Positions 1-8,971 of a stretch of 64,000 nt of DNA are shown here, piece by piece (the first letter of the stretch is position 1; each line of letters begins with the position of its first letter). Both the position numbers and the translations under genes were made by a program. The stretch is from contig CAVVUS010000014.1 of the NCBI GenBank assembly GCA_963751345.1, positions 96,001-160,000 on the forward strand, written 5' to 3'. A model generated the notes under the pieces. That model was not told the origin of the DNA. It saw nothing but the letters and a program-made list of their open reading frames with translations, and searched no databases. Source of the stretch: an uncultured Chloroflexia bacterium. GTDB lineage: Bacteria > Chloroflexota > Anaerolineae > B4-G1 > SLSP01.

Positions 1-745
1 AGCATATTCGCCCCCATCAGGATGCGGTTGGGATCGTCGTGCTCCAGCAGGGGGATCATCGACGCGGAGAGCCCCAACGTCGCCTCGGGGCGCTCGTCGA
101 CGATGACCAGCCGCCCATCTCGGACGGTCGCGCCGACGGCGATGGTGAAGACGTGGCCCATGTTCGATCCCTCGGGCACCTCGAAGGGGCAGACGTAGCC
201 GAGCTGTCCGGGGGCGATCACGTCGTGGGCCTCCGGGACCAGGAGTCGACGAAGGTGGGTGTAATATGAAAACCAGTTGGTCTCGTCAACCGGCTGCACG
301 GTGACAAATCGCCCTTCCGTGCCGGCCATGAACTCGGCAACCCACGTGTCGAGGGGAAGCCACGCACGGGCCAACGACGGACATCCCAGGGCAAATCGGC
401 AGGTGCGTGCCCCAGGCGCGCCGCGACGAAATCGTAGAGCTGTTCGCCGACGCAGCGAATCTCGGCCTGATCCAGCTCCGGGCGCGAGGCGGTAGGGATC
501 ACCACCCTGCGCTGCCCACCGATCTCAAAGATACCCCGCTCGTCCGGCTGGGGCAGGTCAAAGGCCACGTCCAGTGCGTCGTCGTGTGCCCCCAAGGTAA
601 CCGCCACCCGGCATTCGTAGACACCGGTCGACTCGACGGCATAGCTGAGCAGCGGCAGCCGCTCGGCAAGCAGCGCCGGCAGCCGCTCATTCAGGAACGT
701 ATCGTATGAAGCTTTGTGCCAGGGTGTCGACACATCAATCGTCAT
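1..745 (-). CDS. Highly reduced RNA polymerase beta-subunit (RpoB) paralogue; 3' end beyond the window; one apparent 1-bp deletion at ~379-380
   Basis: Manual translation across the frameshift gives RpoB motifs in the correct order: DLPQPDERGIFEIGGQRRVVIP (~[22 protein letters not shown]), EIRCVGEQL (~RIRSVGEM), QPVDETNWFSYYTHLRRL (~QFMDQNNPLSEITHKRRI), GYVCPFEVPEGSNMG (~GRVCPIETPEGPNIG), SASMIPLLEHDDPNRILMGANM (~[22 protein letters not shown]). Confidence 0.85.
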
Positions 746-1362
746 CGTATTCCTCCTCCCTTATCCCCATCTTCTTCCCACTCACGTGCCAACTGTGCCC
801 GGGCATAATGCAATCGCGACTTTACCGTCCCCTCGGGAATGTCCAGCGCGTCCGCCGCCTCCCCGAGACTCATCTCCAACTCGTAGACGAGCCGGAAAAC
901 CCGACGCTTCTCCTCCGACAGCTTGTTGACGAGCTGGCGATACCTCGCGCGCTCCTCCGCCTGCTCGACGGCGGCCTCCGGCCCGAGAGAACCGGCATCC
1001 ACCATCCAGGCGGGCACGCGATTGTCGGCGTCGTCATCATCGTCGACGTCCGGGGGGATCTCCAACGGAAGCTCCCGCCGCCGCTGTACCGTGCGGAGAT
1101 GGTTGAGCGCCAGATTGGTCGCGATCCGGTAGAGCCACGCCTTGAACGTGCCCTCCCCCTGCCATTGGTCGGCCCGCATCCACACCCGCAGGAAAGTCTC
1201 CTGCACCACGTCGTATGCTGCAGCTTCATCGTGAACGATGTGGAGAAGGTAAAACCGCAGCGACGTAGCATAGCGATCGACAAGCACCTCGAACGCGTGC
1301 GAGTCGCGATCGAGAATGCTAGTCACCAGGTCACTGTCGGGTACGGGCGACGCGTCTTGCAT
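742..1362 (-). CDS. ECF (sigma-70 group 4) RNA polymerase sigma factor
   Basis: Sigma2 DVVQETFLRVW...FKAWLYRIATNLALNHLR and sigma4 EAADALDIPEGTVKSRLHYAR; start ATG at 1362 after GAGG; stop overlaps the next start (ATGA, 742-745). Confidence 0.95.
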   Translation of the reverse strand: MQDASPVPDSDLVTSILDRDSHAFEVLVDRYATSLRFYLLHIVHDEAAAYDVVQETFLRVWMRADQWQGEGTFKAWLYRIATNLALNHLRTVQRRRELPLEIPPDVDDDDDADNRVPAWMVDAGSLGPEAAVEQAEERARYRQLVNKLSEEKRRVFRLVYELEMSLGEAADALDIPEGTVKSRLHYARAQLAREWEEDGDKGGGIR

Positions 1363-1379
1363 GATGCCTCTACTATACA

Positions 1380-1405
1380 AGACACCGCTGGGCGCAGGAA
1401 AGTTC
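1380..1405 (-). promoter_or_regulatory. Putative ECF-dependent (autoregulatory) promoter GAACTT-N16-GTCT
   Basis: Minus strand reads GAACTT tcctgcgcccagcggt GTCTTG, ending about 15 nt upstream of the sigma start codon. Confidence 0.6.
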
Positions 1406-1459
1406 ACTACCACTTGTGTCTCTTCCCAGACGGACTAGGATAAGCACCGAGAGGCGACC

Positions 1460-2974
1460 ATGAGTGAAAACGACCCGGCAAAGCCGGACACACATCCCAA
1501 CATCATCCTGATCATGACCGACCAGCAGCGCTTCGACACCATTGGTGCGTGGGGCTATGAGCATATGATCACGCCGGCGATTGACCGAATCGCGCGGAAC
1601 GGCGTCTCCTTCAGCCAAGCCTACGCCCCTGGGGCTACATGCGTCGCGTCGCGGGCCGCAATGTTCACCGGGATGTGGCCCCACACCACCGGGGTCTACA
1701 GCTTTGACCCGTGGGCCGACCACCGCAACTGGGTTCAAGATCTGAATGACGCAGGGTACTGGTGCGCGAGCATCGGCAAGATGCACTTCAGTCCACGCGA
1801 TGTGCCGGGTGGCTTTCACGAGCGGGTGATCGTAGAGAACCCCACGAACCTGACCCTGGCCAACGGGGGGGCTGACGATGATTGGGGCCGTTACCTGAGC
1901 CTGTACGGGCTCGAGCGCCCCAACGCCCGCAACCGGTCTGACCCCGACTGGCTCGCCAAGCATCAAGGCGTCCCCTGGCATCTCGAGGAACGCTTCCACA
2001 GCGATGTCTTCATCGGCAACTCCGCGGTGGCCTGGATCAATGGCCACCGCGGCGAGCGCCCGCTCTTTCTGCAAGTAGGCTTTACAGGGCCGCACGAGCC
2101 ATGGGATCCGCTGCCACGCCACTTTGCGCTCTACGAGGGTCGCGAGCTTCCCCCCGCGGTGTGGCGCGAAGGCGAACTCGGCGAGAAGCCGCCACAGCAA
2201 GCGCGTATCAAGGAGTTCCACGCGACCACGTGGCACGAGTCGCAGATCTCGCTCGATGGCGCCTCGCCCGAAGCTATCGCCGAAATGCGGCGCCACTACT
2301 ATGCCAAGATCACGACTGTCGACGAGCAGATCGGGCGGGTGCTGGACGCATTGGAAACTCGGGGTTACCTCGACGACAGCCTGGTCGTCTTCTGCTCCGA
2401 CCACGGCGAGATGCTGGGCGATCACAAAATGGCCTACAAATGGCTGATGTACGATCCTATCGTTCACGTACCGCTGATCATCTGGGATAATCGATCCGCT
2501 GCACGGACGGGCGAGGTGCACGATCTGGTATCGCTTCTGGACATTGGCCCCACCGTGTTACAGGCCGCCGGCATCGATGTCCCCACCTACTTTGAGGGGC
2601 GCTCTCTGCTTCCGTACTTAGAGGGCGATCCAGCCGAGCCGCATCCCTACATTTTCTGCGAGGACAACTACCAGGTGATGATGCGCGGCGCGAACCACAA
2701 ACTCGTCTATTACATTGGCCAGGAAGAGGGCGAGCTTTACGATCTGCAGGAAGATCCCTACGAGCTGACCAACCTGTGGGACGATCCTACGTACGAAGCC
2801 ACCAAGACCGGCCTGCTTCACGATCTGCTCGACTGGTTGACCAGTAGCGTCTACTGGAACGCCGGCTACCGGCGCACACGTTCCCGCCATACGCAAATGC
2901 GTTGGCCGGCCCGCGGCGATGCCAACTTGCACGGTCGTTCTTCAGCGGATAATGGGCACACGGAGCGATGGTGA
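1460..2974 (+). CDS. Cys-type sulfatase (choline-sulfatase/arylsulfatase-like)
   Basis: PNIILIMTDQQR, CVASRAAMFTG (CxxxR), GKMH, SDHGEMLGDH, ELYDL..DPYE motifs. Confidence 0.93.
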   Translation: MSENDPAKPDTHPNIILIMTDQQRFDTIGAWGYEHMITPAIDRIARNGVSFSQAYAPGATCVASRAAMFTGMWPHTTGVYSFDPWADHRNWVQDLNDAGYWCASIGKMHFSPRDVPGGFHERVIVENPTNLTLANGGADDDWGRYLSLYGLERPNARNRSDPDWLAKHQGVPWHLEERFHSDVFIGNSAVAWINGHRGERPLFLQVGFTGPHEPWDPLPRHFALYEGRELPPAVWREGELGEKPPQQARIKEFHATTWHESQISLDGASPEAIAEMRRHYYAKITTVDEQIGRVLDALETRGYLDDSLVVFCSDHGEMLGDHKMAYKWLMYDPIVHVPLIIWDNRSAARTGEVHDLVSLLDIGPTVLQAAGIDVPTYFEGRSLLPYLEGDPAEPHPYIFCEDNYQVMMRGANHKLVYYIGQEEGELYDLQEDPYELTNLWDDPTYEATKTGLLHDLLDWLTSSVYWNAGYRRTRSRHTQMRWPARGDANLHGRSSADNGHTERW

Positions 2975-3040: not shown

Positions 3041-5369
3041 ATGAGATACACTTATGACCGTCTGTCCGTATCCGACAACCGAGAGCCTGTCGACTACGTT
3101 GACACCAATATCGGCACGCTTTCGTACAAGACATGGTCGACCTCACCGGCCGTCCAGCTTCCCCATGGGATGATCGAGATCGACACCTACACGACGCCCG
3201 GCATCGGCGATAAGTATCTGGCAGACAAAATCTACGGTTTCACAACCGGGGCCTTCGCCCTGATGCCCACCGTCGGGAAGCCCGCGCTCTCGCCCGCTGA
3301 GAACGCCTCGGAGTACGATCACGATTTGGAGCTCGCTACGCCTTACCTCTACGCTGTGCTGTTGGAGGATAGTGGGATCGAGGTCGCGTACACCGCGAGC
3401 GAGCGGGCGGCCTACTTCCGCTTCGCCTTCCCGGAGACGGAGACCGGCAATGTCGTGGTCTACCTCGCAGGTGACGCCGAAGCGGCGTTCAACAACGATG
3501 GGAGTCTGACCGGCTCGCAGACCTTCTTCCGGACCAAGACGTACTTCCACATCGAGTTTGGCCAGGCTCCCGGCACGACACAGGTCACCGCGCTTGAGGA
3601 AGAGGCCGGGGCCGGTCGCGGCTGGCGCCGCCTTCGACCGTCGTTGGCCGCCATCGCGAGCTTCGGTGTGGCAGGGGGGAAGGAGGTTGAGGTCCGTGCA
3701 GGCATCTCCTTTATCAGCGCGGATCAGGCCCGCCGGAATCTGCACAGCGAGATCACGGGTTGGGACTTCGAGTTAACCAAGCGCCAGGCCCGCGAGAGCT
3801 GGAACACCGTGCTCCAGCGCATCCGAGTTGAAGGCGGCACGGAGGATCAGAAGACCAGCTTCTATACGGCGATGTATCGCGATCTGCAGCGCATGAAGAA
3901 CATCACCGAGGACGGCAAGTACTACAGTGGGTTCGATGGCGAGGTGCACGACGCCGGCGACCAGGATTTCTACAACGTCGATCAGCCCTGGGATACCTAT
4001 CGCTGTGCCCGCCCTCTGCAGTTCATCCTCGAACCCGAGCGCGTGAACGACATGCTGCAATCCTACACACGGATGGCCGAGCAGTTGGGCTGGATGCCGA
4101 TCACGCCTCACATCAGCGGCGAGCGCGCCACGATGGTCGGCCGGCACATCACGGCGATCATCACCGATGGATACAACAAGGGCTTCCGCGGCTTCGACCT
4201 GGAGACCGCTTACGCCGGCATGCGGGCGAGTGCGCTGGACAGAACCATCCTGCCCTGGGTAAAGGGGCCGGCGACAGAGCTCGATCGCGCTTACGACGAA
4301 CTCGGCTACTATCCCGCACTGCCCACCCGCGAGGATCAGAAGGTGGACGATCCTGACGAATGGCGGGCCAACGTCGAGAGGCATCATCATGTCAGAGATG
4401 CCGTACCAGATCACGTGGCTACCTGAGATCGGCGTAGACGAATGGGTGCCTGAGGTCGACCGCTGGCACCGGCGCCAATCAGTGTCGGTGACGCTGGAGA
4501 ACGGCTATGACGACTGGTGTCTTGCCCAGCTCGCCGAGGCCCTGGGCAAGGACGACGATGCCGAACACTTCATGTGGCGGGCCGCCGGCTACCGCAACCT
4601 CTTCAACCCGGCCATCGGCTTCATGGCGCCCAAGGACGCCGATGGCACCTGGGTCGAGCCGTACCATCCGATCCTGTCAGGCGGCTTCGCCGGTGAGGCT
4701 TTCTTCGCGGAGATGAATGGGTGGACCTACACGTTCCACGTCCAGCACGACGTCCAGGGCTTGATCGATCTGATGGGCTCGCGAGAGGCCTTCGTCGAGA
4801 AGCTGAACGCGCTCTTCACCGAGCAATACATCATGGACAAACCCGCTTTCTGGGGCCAATTCCCTGATGCATCGGGCCTGATCGGGCAGTACAGCCAGGG
4901 CAACGAGCCTAGCTTCCACGTGCCCTATCTCTACAACTACGCCGGCGCCCCGTGGCGGACACAGCGTCGCGTGCGGGATATCATGAAACTTTGGTATAAC
5001 GCGGGGCCGATGGGGCTCTGCGGCGACGATGACATCGGAGCGCTCTCGTCGTGGTACGTCTTCAGCGCGATGGGCTTCTACCCGACCTGCCCGGGACGCC
5101 CCACCTACGACCTCGGTAGCCCGCTCTTCGAGACAACGACCATCAGCATGCCGGAGGGCAAGACCTTCACGATCCACGCCAAGGGCGTGTCGGACCGCAA
5201 CAAGTACATCCAGTCCGCAACGCTCAACGGCGAGCCGTGGGATCGCCCGTGGCTGCGGCACAGCGACCTGGCCAACGGCGGCGTACTGGAACTGGTGATG
5301 GGCCCGCGCCCGAACAAGGAGTGGGGCAGCGATCCCTCCTCGGCGCCCCCGTCGATGTCGACGGACTAG
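3041..5369 (+). CDS. GH92 family glycoside hydrolase (alpha-mannosidase-like), frameshift near 4380-4390
   Basis: WDTYR, SVSVTLE..YDDW, GQYSQGNEPSFHVPYLYNY, GDDDIGALSSWYVFSAMGFYP split over ORFs 3041-4426 and 4389-5369; no signal peptide evident. Confidence 0.9.
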
Positions 5370-6167: not shown

Positions 6168-6941
6168 CTAGGAAGTGCCCTTCCAGACATACTCGCCCAA
6201 TGCCGCCGACAGCGGGTCGGCGTCCTCCGCGCAGAACCCGAAGTGTAGCCGGCGGCGCCAACCCTCGGCATAGGTGAAGCGGCCCGACATCTCACCTACC
6301 TGGTGGCTCAGGACCTCCATCATATCGAGATAGGAGTCCATCCCCTGGCTCTCGTCCAACCACACTTTCTGGCTCTGGTGGTGCGCCAACATCGCCCGCT
6401 TGGTAGGCAGCACGCCGGTGATGTCGACGAAGATCCCCGGGACGATCGGCTGACCCAGCGGATCGCAGTTGCCGTGAGGTTGAGCGTGGTAGACCGTGAC
6501 CTCTTGGTCAACCGGCGGCACCGGCGGATTGGTGGGGTAGTTAGGCATACCACGCGCGAATGCCGCCGTCACCGCCAGCCGTGCCGCATTCTGGTGATCC
6601 TCCATGTAGTCAACGGGCGATAGCACCAGCAGGATCTCGGGTGCCACCTCGCGCATCACCGCAGCCAGGCGCGCCAGCGTCGCCGGCTCATAGAAGATAG
6701 CCATATCCTCCACAAGGCTATCGTGATGGATCGCCCCGATGAAGGCCGCCGCCGCTCTCGATTCCTCGCGCCGGACGCGGATGATCTCCTCGCGACTATG
6801 GTGCAGCGTTCCGCAGGAGCCGTTGGCGATCGTCATCGTGTGCAGCTCATAGCCCGCCCGTCCTAGAAGGATGAGGGTACCGGCCATGAAAAACTCGATA
6901 TCGTCAGGGTGCGCGGAGACCGCGAAAGCGCGTTTGACCAT
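6168..6941 (-). CDS. PIG-L/LmbE family deacetylase
   Basis: AHPDDIEF motif, [17 protein letters not shown]; start overlaps the upstream stop (TGATG). Confidence 0.9.
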
Positions 6942-7869
6942 CAGTGCATCTCCGCTTCGCAGGAGCCGATGCCGCCCCGGAGGAAGTTGAACTGGACGTT
7001 CGGGTGATCCGCCAATAACGACATCGGGCACCGCGCTGTCGGGCAGCCGCTTGCCAGATCATCAGCGTCGTGAGGCGCATGCCGAAGGGGTTGTCGTGCG
7101 TCCCGGCCTGCCAGATCGAGACCTTCTCCGCCTTCCAGGTCTCCGCAGGGCCGACCGTGAGCGCCTGGCTCGGCACGTTCTGCACCACGCCGCCGCCCGA
7201 GGTGCGGGCATTCTGGATCAGCGTGATGGGGTGCAGGTCGACGACGCGGGTCTCCAGCTTGCGATATTCGGCAGGAGTGGGCGGGCGGTCAACGTACGGC
7301 CCCTCACGGCGCAGCGGATCGTTAAAGGCCCAGTGCTTGACCTCGCCCTGCCCGCCCTGCATCACGACGCAGCGCGCCGCATCCCAACTCGCCTTGTACT
7401 CGGCGAGATCGACGGCAGGGAAGTGCAGGTTCTCCGCAGGCATCCGCAGATCGGGCCGGATACGATCGAAGCAGAGCGCCATATCGGCACGGCGGAAACT
7501 GAGGGGGTGATCGATCGTGACTTCCTTGCCGTCGACGACCCACTCATCCATGCCCCAGAAGTGCGCGTAACGCAGGTCGAGCTCCAGCGCATTGACCAGC
7601 CGCGCGACCAGCGGCAACTGCTCTGTCGGCCCGATCGGGCCACAGATACCCGCGGGCGTCTCGTCGGTCGCCTGTCGCCAGGCATCGATGTACTCCAGTG
7701 CCTCGGCGAGGTAGAAGTCCTCCAACGTGTCGTAGAAAACCACGCGGAATCCGGGCCGGCTCAACGCCAGCATATCCTCCGGCGTCAGCCTGGCAGCGTC
7801 GTCCAGGATCTCCCGATCCAGCGTCGTGTAGTCCCACCAATCCGGCGCCACTTTGCTCAAGGGTCGCAT
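6941..7869 (-). CDS. Glucosamine-6-phosphate deaminase/isomerase (NagB)-like protein; indels near 7025-7057
   Basis: [30 protein letters not shown]; corrected C-terminus [16 protein letters not shown]...EAEMH. Confidence 0.8.
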
Positions 7870-7997: not shown

Positions 7998-8971
7998 CGA
8001 TACACCGCCTCACGCAACCCCTTGATGTAGCCGATCGCGAACAGTCGCCCGATGCGGGTGTAGCCGGGGTGACCGTAGTCATCACCGGCCATCGTGGGCA
8101 CGTGGTCGGGGCGGCAGACGCCCTCGTAGCCGACGTCGCGATAGGCGCGCAGGCACTCCAGCATGTCGGTCTTGCCGTCGTCGTGGAACGTCTCGACGTA
8201 CTTCTCAGGCGTCCCGCGGACGTCGCGGAAGTGGACGAAGAAGACCTTGTCCTGACCACAGAAGTGGCGGATCGCGCCGGGCAGGTCGTCGGTCATCAGC
8301 GTGAAGTTTCCCTGGCAGAGCGCGATGCCGTTGACCGGGCTGGGGACGATGTCGAGCAGCTTCTGGTAGTTCTCGATGCTGCGCAGCACGCGCGCGAAGC
8401 CGCGAATCGGCGAGAGCGGCGGATCATCCGGATGCGCGGCCAGTTTGACGTTGTATTCCTCGGCCACGGGCACGACCTGCTCCAGGAAATACTGGAGGTT
8501 CGCCCAGATCTGGTCGTCGGAGAACACGCCATACTCGGTCAGCGGCGCGTCCTTCATCAGGTCGTGGTCGTACCCGGTCACGAGGGCGCCGCCGCGGGTT
8601 GGGATGGTGCTGGACGTGCGCAGCACGGTGACCCCCGCCATGAACTCATAGCACCAGACGGGGATCTCCAGCCGGCCCATGTTGCGGATGAACTCCTTGA
8701 TGACCTCGATCTCTTCGTCGCGTCCCGGAAGGCCCAGCTTGATCTTGTCCATCGGGGGCCGGCTCTCGATGACGGCCAACTCGAAGCCCGCGTTCGCATA
8801 CGCGGTCTTCATCCGCAGCAACGACATATAGCTCCACGGCTGCCACTCCGGATCGGCATCGGGGATAGGCTGCAGGCCAAACCCGCCGACCACGTAGTCG
8901 ACGCCGCACTGCTTGATAGGCAGCCAGAGTTCCTTCTGATCCGGATGAAATACCTCAGCGATCTTGATCAT
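7991..8971 (-). CDS. uxuA: Mannonate dehydratase family protein
   Basis: KLAAHPDDPP, NGIALCQGNF, FVHFRDVRG, RPDHVPTM, GRLFAIGYIKGL. Confidence 0.85.
   Translation of the reverse strand: MIKIAEVFHPDQKELWLPIKQCGVDYVVGGFGLQPIPDADPEWQPWSYMSLLRMKTAYANAGFELAVIESRPPMDKIKLGLPGRDEEIEVIKEFIRNMGRLEIPVWCYEFMAGVTVLRTSSTIPTRGGALVTGYDHDLMKDAPLTEYGVFSDDQIWANLQYFLEQVVPVAEEYNVKLAAHPDDPPLSPIRGFARVLRSIENYQKLLDIVPSPVNGIALCQGNFTLMTDDLPGAIRHFCGQDKVFFVHFRDVRGTPEKYVETFHDDGKTDMLECLRAYRDVGYEGVCRPDHVPTMAGDDYGHPGYTRIGRLFAIGYIKGLREAVYRE

Follow-up and report, generated by a model that had tools for sequence, protein, structure and literature searches.

A reduced beta-beta' fusion RNA polymerase gene adjoining an ECF-type sigma factor gene in an uncultured Chloroflexia bacterium: a candidate second transcription system

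The DNA stretch considered here (the window) covers 64,000 nucleotides of contig C14 (CAVVUS010000014.1, positions 96001-160000) from the assembly of an uncultured Chloroflexia bacterium (G000, the source genome; 5.4 Mb, 49 contigs). Three successive reading frames occupy the minus strand of window 1-1413: a gene for an extracytoplasmic function (ECF)-type sigma factor and then two frames of a gene for a reduced RNA polymerase (RNAP), designated below as the mini-polymerase. The part of the mini-polymerase gene inside the window (1-745, minus strand) specifies residues 1 to ~247. The gene passes the window start and enters the preceding 8 kb of the contig (C14 88001-96000, designated L001; L001 1-8000 lies outside the window), where the homologue of the bacterial beta subunit is fused to a homologue of beta'. 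This continuation and the fusion were missed by the initial annotation of the locus, which described an RpoB paralogue with domain-precise deletions. The homology to beta is clear, but the label is too narrow for a beta-beta' fusion with a dedicated sigma factor. Ordinary rpoB (contig C10) and ordinary rpoC (contig C11) are also present in the source genome, and the fused gene is additional to them.

The sigma factor gene (742..1362, minus strand; 206 aa) begins with the ATG at 1362, which was picked from an alignment of 10 orthologues. Its stop codon (742-744) overlaps the ATG of the mini-polymerase (743-745) as ATGA. The product is an ECF (group 4) sigma factor according to Pfam (Sigma70_r2, 2.2e-16; Sigma70_r4_2, 5.3e-13; Sigma70_ECF) and TIGR02937 (108.5 bits, cut-off 42.9). 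A predicted promoter, the ECF-type motif TGAACYT-N12-YGGYGTC, ends 18 nt upstream of the sigma ATG (1381..1406, minus strand); its layout is that of a typical ECF promoter (GAAC at -35, GTC at -10) with ECF-like spacing.

In the source genome the mini-polymerase gene is divided into co-linear pieces. Piece A (386..745, minus strand; residues 1-120), delimited from its open reading frame (ORF) and a three-frame translation and co-linear with intact orthologues, encodes the N-terminal (protrusion) part of beta and the junction of the lobe deletion, with the motifs GQRRVVIP (494-517) and EIRCVGEQL (437-463), both on the minus strand. The profile match of this piece to Escherichia coli beta 119-147 is weak (0.5 bits); EIRCVGEQL was matched with the equivalent beta-455 motif by phmmer on solved beta subunits. 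Frame break 1 (375..385, minus strand) follows, with two extra bases relative to the nearest relative (G002) in nucleotide alignment. GQRRVVIP and EIRCVGEQL therefore stand in a frame different from that of THLRR (break near 378-385), a point overlooked in the initial annotation.

Piece B is a 325-aa frame with the Pfam domains RNA_pol_Rpb2_3 and RNA_pol_Rpb2_6. Its in-window part (1..377, minus strand; residues about 123-247) leaves the window start and continues to L001 7415. This part includes, all on the minus strand, VQPVDETNW with the equivalent of Q513 (273-299; rifampicin (Rif)-cluster I equivalent), the fork loop 2 deletion within THLRRLLVPEAHDV (219-260, then GYVCPFEVPEG), the leucine equivalent to S531 (240-242) and the block IPLLEHDDPNRILMGANM, which holds the equivalents of R678 and M681 (3-68). 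The remaining features lie outside the window: frame break 2 (L001 7405-7413), a short piece C holding a GE.E switch-3-like block, frame break 3 (L001 7296) and the beta'-like piece D (L001 5596-7296; 566 aa) with DADFDGD and the Pfam domains Rpb1_1 and Rpb1_2. Both outer breaks were located by nucleotide alignment with G002. Relative to G002, two bases are extra at about L001 8377/8382 (numbering continued into the window), two are extra at 7405 and 7413, and one is missing at 7296; all three frame changes are -1. In other genomes of the genus the gene is a single open frame (G015, 1056 aa; G019, 1041 aa; G009, at least 1015 aa up to the contig end), and the G002 copy has a single break, located elsewhere than those of the source genome.

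The architecture was derived from a profile of 173 full-length homologues aligned to E. coli RpoB and RpoC (NC_000913.3). It is that of a single chain of ~1050 residues, in which a bacterial beta subunit is fused head-to-tail to beta' and reduced to the catalytic core. Family positions 57-85 correspond weakly to beta 119-147; 107-203 to beta 474-581, with an 11-residue gap at fork loop 2; 210-265 to beta 652-707; 267-297 to beta 792-822; 301-394 to beta 1054-1147; and 370-519 to beta 1177-1342, the beta C-terminus. The same beta blocks were recovered by phmmer on solved structures. Positions 558-771 correspond to beta' 266-514 (138 bits), including the clamp helices (coiled-coil) and the Asp-triad motif, with a 25-residue gap in place of the rudder (beta' 312-336). 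Positions 787-955 correspond to beta' 588-794, up to the bridge helix, which is followed by ~50 residues with weak likeness to beta' 1320-1354.

The endpoints of the deletions are common to the family, as judged from distances between alignment columns in the 173 members. The distance from beta 140 to beta 455 has a modal value of 21 residues (315 in E. coli), found exactly in 143 members; that from TH.RR to G.VCP, 20 residues (31 in E. coli) in 152; that from PEGPN to IP..EH, 40 (104 in E. coli) in 162; that from NM.RQ to FED, 45 (128 in E. coli) in 136; and that from FED to GDK (beta 812 to 1063), 23 (251 in E. coli) in 164. The initial annotation had placed gaps at the lobe, at fork loop 2 and in a shrunken segment at ~580-660, with GQRRVVIP (~145) joined within about 10 aa to EIRCVGEQL (~455). 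Both the profile against RpoB and phmmer locate the absent lobe, fork loop 2 (a loss of 11 residues) and the 582-651 segment there, and exact modal spacing in 136-164 of the 173 homologues speaks against variable endpoints. Two further deletions, of beta 708-791 and of the whole flap (beta 823-1053), had escaped notice. The beta part has thus lost the lobe (beta2; 143/173 at the deleted spacing), fork loop 2, two further segments and the flap (164/173). The beta' part lacks the Zn domain, the lid, the rudder and everything from the trigger loop, including sequence insertion 3 (SI3), to the jaw. Since no Cys is conserved in the alignment beyond residue 185, both Zn sites are gone; and since only ~36 residues, against ~160 in beta', separate the AHIWF-like motif from the clamp helices, the lid is gone as well.

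What is retained is the catalytic centre: both double-psi barrels, the Mg-binding Asp triad, the beta lysine/arginine nucleoside triphosphate (NTP) site, the Rif-cluster/hybrid-binding segment, the bridge helix and the clamp helices. The beta' barrel has the signature of the two-barrel superfamily (DADFDGD in this copy; RNA_pol_Rpb1_2, E 4e-20), and among the full-length members 176 of 179 retain DxDGD. The basic NTP site of the beta barrel (E. coli K1065, R1069, H1070 and K1073) appears as GDKMSNRHGTKG in this copy (RNA_pol_Rpb2_6, E 5.5e-40); GDK..RHG.KG is found in 147 of the 179, and the columns K319, R323, H324 and K327 are invariant or nearly so. Equivalents of R528 and R687 are each kept in 172 of the 173 profile members and that of H526 in 160. 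The bridge helix is represented by the match to beta' 588-794 and, in the structural model, by a long high-confidence helix at 976-1008.

This AlphaFold2 model, built for the G015 orthologue from a 112-row alignment, has a mean pLDDT of 94.4 and a pTM of 0.93, with disorder confined to residues 571-584. Superposition of its residues 1-504 on a solved beta subunit aligned 497 residues (2.6 Å, Z 30.4, 31% identity, chain residues 22-1137). Foldseek matched the model best to beta and beta' chains of bacteria and plastids, and a Foldseek comparison with BFVD gave nothing closer than giant-virus subunits. The G002 copy contains a 72-nt in-frame insertion (L024 ~6900-6975, corresponding to L001 ~7021) in which the adjacent ...PPGGWWE... 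segment is partially duplicated; its site is the sole low-confidence loop of the model, 571-584, and the junction loop is variable in length.

The conserved catalytic core and the confident fold suggest a working polymerase, and the mini-polymerase presumably polymerises RNA. A precedent is YonO, an RNAP encoded by the SPbeta prophage of Bacillus subtilis: it has no homology to the trigger loop and synthesises RNA as efficiently as the multisubunit enzyme, and its authors note that RNA can be made in vitro without the flap, lid, zipper, rudder or lobe (PMC5467207).

A non-catalytic role could also be considered. The protein could act as a mimic of core RNAP, sequestering or buffering its sigma factor via the clamp helices. 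The place downstream of an ECF sigma gene is usually held by anti-sigma factors; the mini-polymerase gene lies exactly there with overlapping stop and start codons (ATGA), keeps the clamp helices and is accompanied by no target promoters found so far. A mimic of this kind, however, would need neither the Asp triad (176/179) and GDK..RHG.KG (147/179) nor near-invariant equivalents of R528, R687 and H526, nor a complete two-barrel core with a bridge helix predicted at pLDDT 94. This role is therefore quite improbable.

Selection was estimated as the ratio of nonsynonymous to synonymous substitution rates (dN/dS, Nei-Gojobori). Comparison of the mini-polymerases of G000 and G002 gave 0.187 over 997 codons (dS 0.23; individual pieces 0.16-0.20), the 33 codons of piece C being left out; the corresponding values are 0.27 for the sigma factor and 0.047 for canonical rpoB (dS 0.42). 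Six further pairs of mini-polymerases gave 0.15-0.20 with dS saturated at 1.2-1.6. Such ratios are far from 1, and the family is under purifying selection. The earlier proposal that the deletions reflect selection rather than decay is borne out for the family by the common endpoints, the conserved Asp triad and dN/dS of 0.15-0.20; it is less secure for this particular copy with its three frame breaks, which are considered below. Synonymous divergence between G000 and G002 is roughly twofold lower for the mini-polymerase (dS 0.23) than for canonical rpoB (0.42), and a later exchange between lineages or a different codon constraint could account for the lower value.

The mini-polymerase is distinct from housekeeping subunits. 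The rpoB equivalogs TIGR02013 (171.6 bits, cut-off 801.15) and NF001616 (167.4 against 896) were not reached, nor were the RpoC equivalogs TIGR02386/NF011498 (119 bits against 963.5), the Zn-binding domain and trigger loop being absent. The same applies to the models of full-length beta/beta' fusions, NF011417 (175.4 against 4632) and NF007172 (164.6 against 5372), and no NCBIfam model reaches its cut-off for the polymerase.

Some actinomycetes carry second rpoB genes that encode a resistant spare beta subunit. The mini-polymerase could by analogy be a rifamycin-resistant substitute for RpoB in the host core, given its homology to beta and the residue other than Ser at the S531 position. Leucine does occupy that position, as the initial annotation stated, and the equivalents of Q513, D516, H526 and R529 in the Rif pocket (Q, D, H and R) and of R678 and M681 in the core (R and M) are all kept in this copy. 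The interpretation of the leucine as the classic resistance substitution did not survive comparison: L (42), I (29), R (28), V (18) and F (12) are found here among the 173 homologues, and the leucine is not a selected resistance allele. The position is variable, mostly bulky hydrophobic or Arg, and not a fixed resistance residue, and the kept pocket residues are general hybrid-binding residues; the rifamycin insensitivity proposed earlier finds no support in either. In every intact member the beta part is covalently fused to a beta' homologue, and therefore it cannot be swapped into the host core as beta. With the score of 171.6 bits against the rpoB cut-off of 801.15, the missing lobe and flap and the variability at 531, a spare beta subunit is hardly credible. 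Altered handling of downstream DNA, also suggested earlier, is a fair inference from the sequence, given the absent lobe, jaw and trigger loop.

The sigma factor gene is strictly linked to the mini-polymerase gene. An orthologous ECF sigma (85-413 bits) is encoded directly upstream on the same strand in 9/9 loci with upstream DNA. Among 40 related genomes, sigma orthologues (63-84% identity) occur in exactly the four that contain the polymerase and in none of the 36 others, where the best match is at most 43%. No other conserved neighbour was found near the module in the loci compared, and no alpha or omega gene accompanies it. Genes on the opposite strand flank the sigma-polymerase pair in L026, L027, L028 and the source genome, and the pair is a self-contained bicistron. 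The motif TGAACYT-N12-YGGYGTC is likewise conserved upstream of sigma: it is exact in 8 of 10 loci from four phyla, and the other two have variants.

The strict linkage and co-occurrence, together with the retained clamp helices, which are the docking site of sigma region 2 in ordinary RNAP, suggest that the sigma is the initiation factor of the mini-polymerase and probably binds it, and not the host core only. The genes would form a two-gene operon with its own ECF-type sigma behind an ECF-type promoter; sigma and mini-polymerase together would constitute an autonomous sigma-directed second transcription system, which could switch itself on through positive feedback. A sigma-dependent mini-polymerase is the reading favoured here, although by no wide measure of certainty.

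Several facts weigh against it. The flap tip anchors sigma region 4 in the ordinary holoenzyme; in the mini-polymerase the flap is absent, yet the -35 element is conserved at canonical ECF spacing. Furthermore, no convincing second copy of the promoter and no regulon was found in the source genome and five further genomes. The strict motif occurs twice in the 5.4 Mb source genome; one site is that of the module, and the other lies within a coding frame. In the five further genomes it marks the module in 5/5 cases and 0-2 other sites, and a control with the pattern reversed also gives 0-2. A search that tolerated one mismatch returned 48 sites against 20 in the control, mostly in coding sequence. 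The structural model, moreover, represents an orthologue 76% identical over the 325-aa piece, not this copy. A complex prediction for polymerase residues 262-1056 with sigma scored 0.01 (mark 0.32) and was counted neither way. Finally, three frame breaks in a 3.2-kb gene, all within 1.1 kb, amount to ~10 times the background of this assembly (expected ~0.27; P(>=3) ~0.003).

Given the missing flap and the canonical promoter spacing, the host core may be the partner of the sigma, at least at the operon's own promoter. In that case the operon would be switched on by sigma and host core RNAP, as in ordinary ECF autoregulation, and an active mini-polymerase would function independently of sigma: without any such factor or with another one, on special templates (for instance single-stranded DNA, RNA or nicked DNA) or in a role akin to priming. 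The promoter does have the standard ECF -35/-10 layout and spacing. The enzyme also lacks the flap, which positions sigma region 4, and the lobe, jaw and rudder, which hold duplex DNA and stabilise open complexes, and other two-barrel enzymes use RNA or single-stranded templates (PMC9508822). However, a sigma that serves the host core should persist alone in some genomes or have other targets; neither was found, the sigma orthologues being present in 4/4 genomes with the polymerase and 0/36 without it and adjacent in 9/9 loci. Besides, the clamp helices belong to one of the best beta'-matching segments (138 bits). Sigma independence is accordingly rather unlikely, and the sigma-dependent reading is retained.

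Sigma orthologues (window 742-1362 in the source genome) have an acidic linker between regions 2 and 4 (alignment columns about 108-135) followed by the motif P-x-W-[MFA]-[VI]-[DE], which is missing only in the Spirochaetales member. This motif may provide a contact replacing the flap-tip anchor.

The frame breaks raise the question of whether the source-genome gene is a decaying pseudogene, with nothing functional encoded at window 1-745. Their density, ~10 times that of 14 long housekeeping genes or of the remainder of a 43-kb region of synteny with G002, fits this explanation, and the G002 copy also has one frame break and the 72-nt insertion. Because ~0.27 breaks would be expected, random assembly error alone fits poorly. 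Nevertheless, the same assembly contains frameshifts in essential genes. Canonical rpoB (C10 143861-147767) is split at residue 703, though 96% identical to an intact 1302-aa gene of G002, and two class-I aminoacyl-tRNA synthetase genes are split (C18 171080-173120 and at the start of C13). The genes for rpoC, two dnaE and two gyrA/parC are whole, which sets the background at ~3 of 14 long housekeeping genes broken in ~40 kb. In the 43-kb syntenic region, 24 ORFs were compared and five of them, among them the GH92-like and NagB-like genes described below, are spread over two or more frames; for one of the five, a change in G002 is the better explanation.

In both break 1 and break 2 the extra bases are two single-base insertions separated by 4-8 nt, a pattern that resembles consensus noise more than mutation. 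The overall dN/dS of 0.187 (0.16-0.20 by piece), the absence of an in-frame stop inside any piece and the intact frames in three short-read assemblies of the genus also speak against decay, and the low ratio in every piece means that any decay must be very recent. Low-depth contigs of relatives (85-94% alike, one 99+) carry frame-restoring indels at all three breaks; at break 1, one base is lacking at each of L001 8377 and 8382 in X1, and two bases are lacking at 8380 in X5. These contigs cannot settle whether the breaks of the source genome are real. Assembly error probably explains the three breaks, whereas real, recent inactivation of this copy, and with it the pseudogene explanation, is unlikely, though far from negligible.

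The mini-polymerase belongs to a large family that seems to be undescribed and for which no curated family was found. In a word-index search, 117 of the best 120 proteins were 960-1110 aa long, and all had both Rpb2_6 and Rpb1_2; where named, these 120 were called "hypothetical protein" or bore bare lists of Pfam domains, and the organisms named were Anaerolineae, Chloroflexota, Hydrogenedentes and Poribacteria. An exhaustive search returned 469 cluster representatives at E 1e-30 or better; among the 150 matches listed, 65 were 940-1110 aa, most others were shorter pieces, and three had 1948-2309 aa. A search for longer forms gave three matches, all other kinds of fused RNAP, and no sigma-fused version was seen among them, which is weak evidence. 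Named genome records add Caldilineaceae, Latescibacterota and Spirochaetales. A scan of genome contigs was dominated by canonical rpoB/rpoC, and six of the 80 loci retained were family members. The distribution is patchy: within the genus, 4 of 21 genomes contain the polymerase, whereas it was found in none of 19 others from the family and order, and a junction-specific query matched 1 of 400 further genomes sampled across the phylum.

No link to mobile elements or anti-phage systems emerged. No PADLOC family matches the polymerase, and the sigma gave one weak match (E 0.0064). PHROG matches of the polymerase are generic beta and beta' families. In collections of phages (50,697 records) and plasmids (72,556) no match covers at least 80% of the query. 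A scan of IMG/VR, including family-specific peptide patterns, produced a best ORF of 283 bits, and separate beta'-then-beta genes of viral contigs reached at most 175 bits against the family profile, whereas members score at least 600. The genes flanking the module are ordinary metabolic ones. Full-text literature searches gave no description of this family, although the supplements of the ECF reclassification paper or a 2012 survey of the bacterial transcription apparatus may mention it; RpoB, RpoC and Rpb do not occur in the main text of the ECF reclassification paper.

Other fused forms were encountered in the course of these searches. The IMG/VR contigs L159/L160, L168, L169, L170/L188, L176 and L183 carry single ORFs of 1447-2830 aa with the beta GDK..HG motif and the beta' Asp triad; at 215-283 bits against the family profile, these are unrelated-looking fused beta-beta' forms of another kind. 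The metagenomic proteins P0270 and P0271 (1919 and 2236 aa) combine beta and beta' with the alpha-subunit domains PF01000 and PF01193, and ESM Atlas clusters of 1164-1787 aa also have both Rpb2_6 and Rpb1_2. Fused RNAP forms seem to be more diverse than the literature suggests.

Among known enzymes, canonical bacterial RNAP with an ECF sigma clearly resembles the module in sequence (best PDB matches, E 1e-39 and 4e-28), and common to both are the active-site motifs, the clamp helices, the ECF-type sigma and the GAAC -35/GTC -10 promoter motif. In contrast to the ~2750 aa of E. coli beta and beta' (1342 + 1407), the mini-polymerase is one chain of ~1050 aa without the lobe, fork loop 2, flap, Zn domain, lid, rudder, trigger loop and jaw, and without an accompanying alpha or omega gene. 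Full-length beta-beta' fusions (NF011417 and NF007172; models of 2839 and 2890 positions) have one frame and the same order but unite complete housekeeping subunits into ~2800-2900 aa.

YonO is also a single ~100-kDa polypeptide without a trigger loop and most nucleic-acid-holding domains; it has few catalytic residues in common with multisubunit RNAP, is prophage-encoded and has no known specificity factor, according to its description (PMC5467207). Set against that description, the mini-polymerase differs in being readily recognised as beta plus beta', in its chromosomal location without phage context and in its tie to a sigma factor. Reduced beta/beta' homologues without alpha or omega are likewise found in RNAPs of the jumbo phages phiKZ and AR9; these differ in consisting of several polypeptides, being phage-encoded and very divergent and using no sigma-70-family factor. 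During infection these RNAPs resist rifampicin, according to the phiKZ abstract.

The closest architectural analogue in print is K2ORF6p of the yeast cytoplasmic linear plasmid pGKL2 (Rpb2::Rpb1, 982 aa), compared here by its description in PMC2919709 and PMC6211774. It is of similar size, has a beta-like part followed by a beta'-like part, has ~half of each subunit deleted and misses the lid and rudder. Unlike the mini-polymerase, it is of eukaryotic/viral descent, needs a small beta' C-terminal subunit (K2ORF7p) and works with an upstream conserved sequence (UCS) promoter and a capping enzyme, without sigma (PMC2919709, PMC6211774). A 2018 paper regarded the Rpb2::Rpb1 fusion of yeast linear plasmids as unique among RNAPs; the present family would be its bacterial parallel.

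The module could tentatively be viewed as a complete second, orthogonal transcription system on a bacterial chromosome, comprising within ~3.8 kb a mini-polymerase, a private ECF sigma, a private promoter and a positive-feedback loop. If so, the mini-polymerase would be the smallest sigma-dependent RNAP known, and the lobe, flap, Zn domain, lid, rudder, trigger loop, jaw, alpha and omega would be dispensable for sigma-directed initiation. Since many inhibitor-binding elements are absent or altered, transcription might continue while the host enzyme is blocked by an antibiotic or a phage factor. An active enzyme would represent a natural experiment giving the minimal parts list of a bacterial-type sigma-dependent RNAP, a question approached so far only through single-domain deletions in the enzymes of E. 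coli or Thermus, or by study of YonO, which is far more divergent. With its 1050-residue chain, 200-residue sigma and defined promoter, the system would lend itself to cryo-electron microscopy and single-molecule work, and it is a candidate orthogonal expression system. The patchy spread (4/21 in the genus, 1/400 in the phylum sample), which nevertheless extends to Poribacteria, Latescibacterota, Spirochaetales and Hydrogenedentes, raises the question of a selective use of a private polymerase.

Some observations concern the surroundings of the module. In the window, a glycoside hydrolase family 92 (GH92)-like gene (3041-5369, plus strand) is split into 461 and 326 aa, its counterparts having 778 aa in G002 and 786 aa in G015, and a NagB-like gene (6904-7869, minus strand) changes frame near its 3' end. 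Downstream of the mini-polymerase, a response regulator and a histidine kinase are encoded by two genes in the source genome (L001 3296-5538) and by one 742-aa frame in G002 (L024 2802-5027), probably owing to a frame error in G002. A sulfatase gene adjoins the module both here (window 1460-2974, plus strand) and in the distant Spirochaetales locus (L031 3301-4725); this may be chance, as the organisms are rich in sulfatases.

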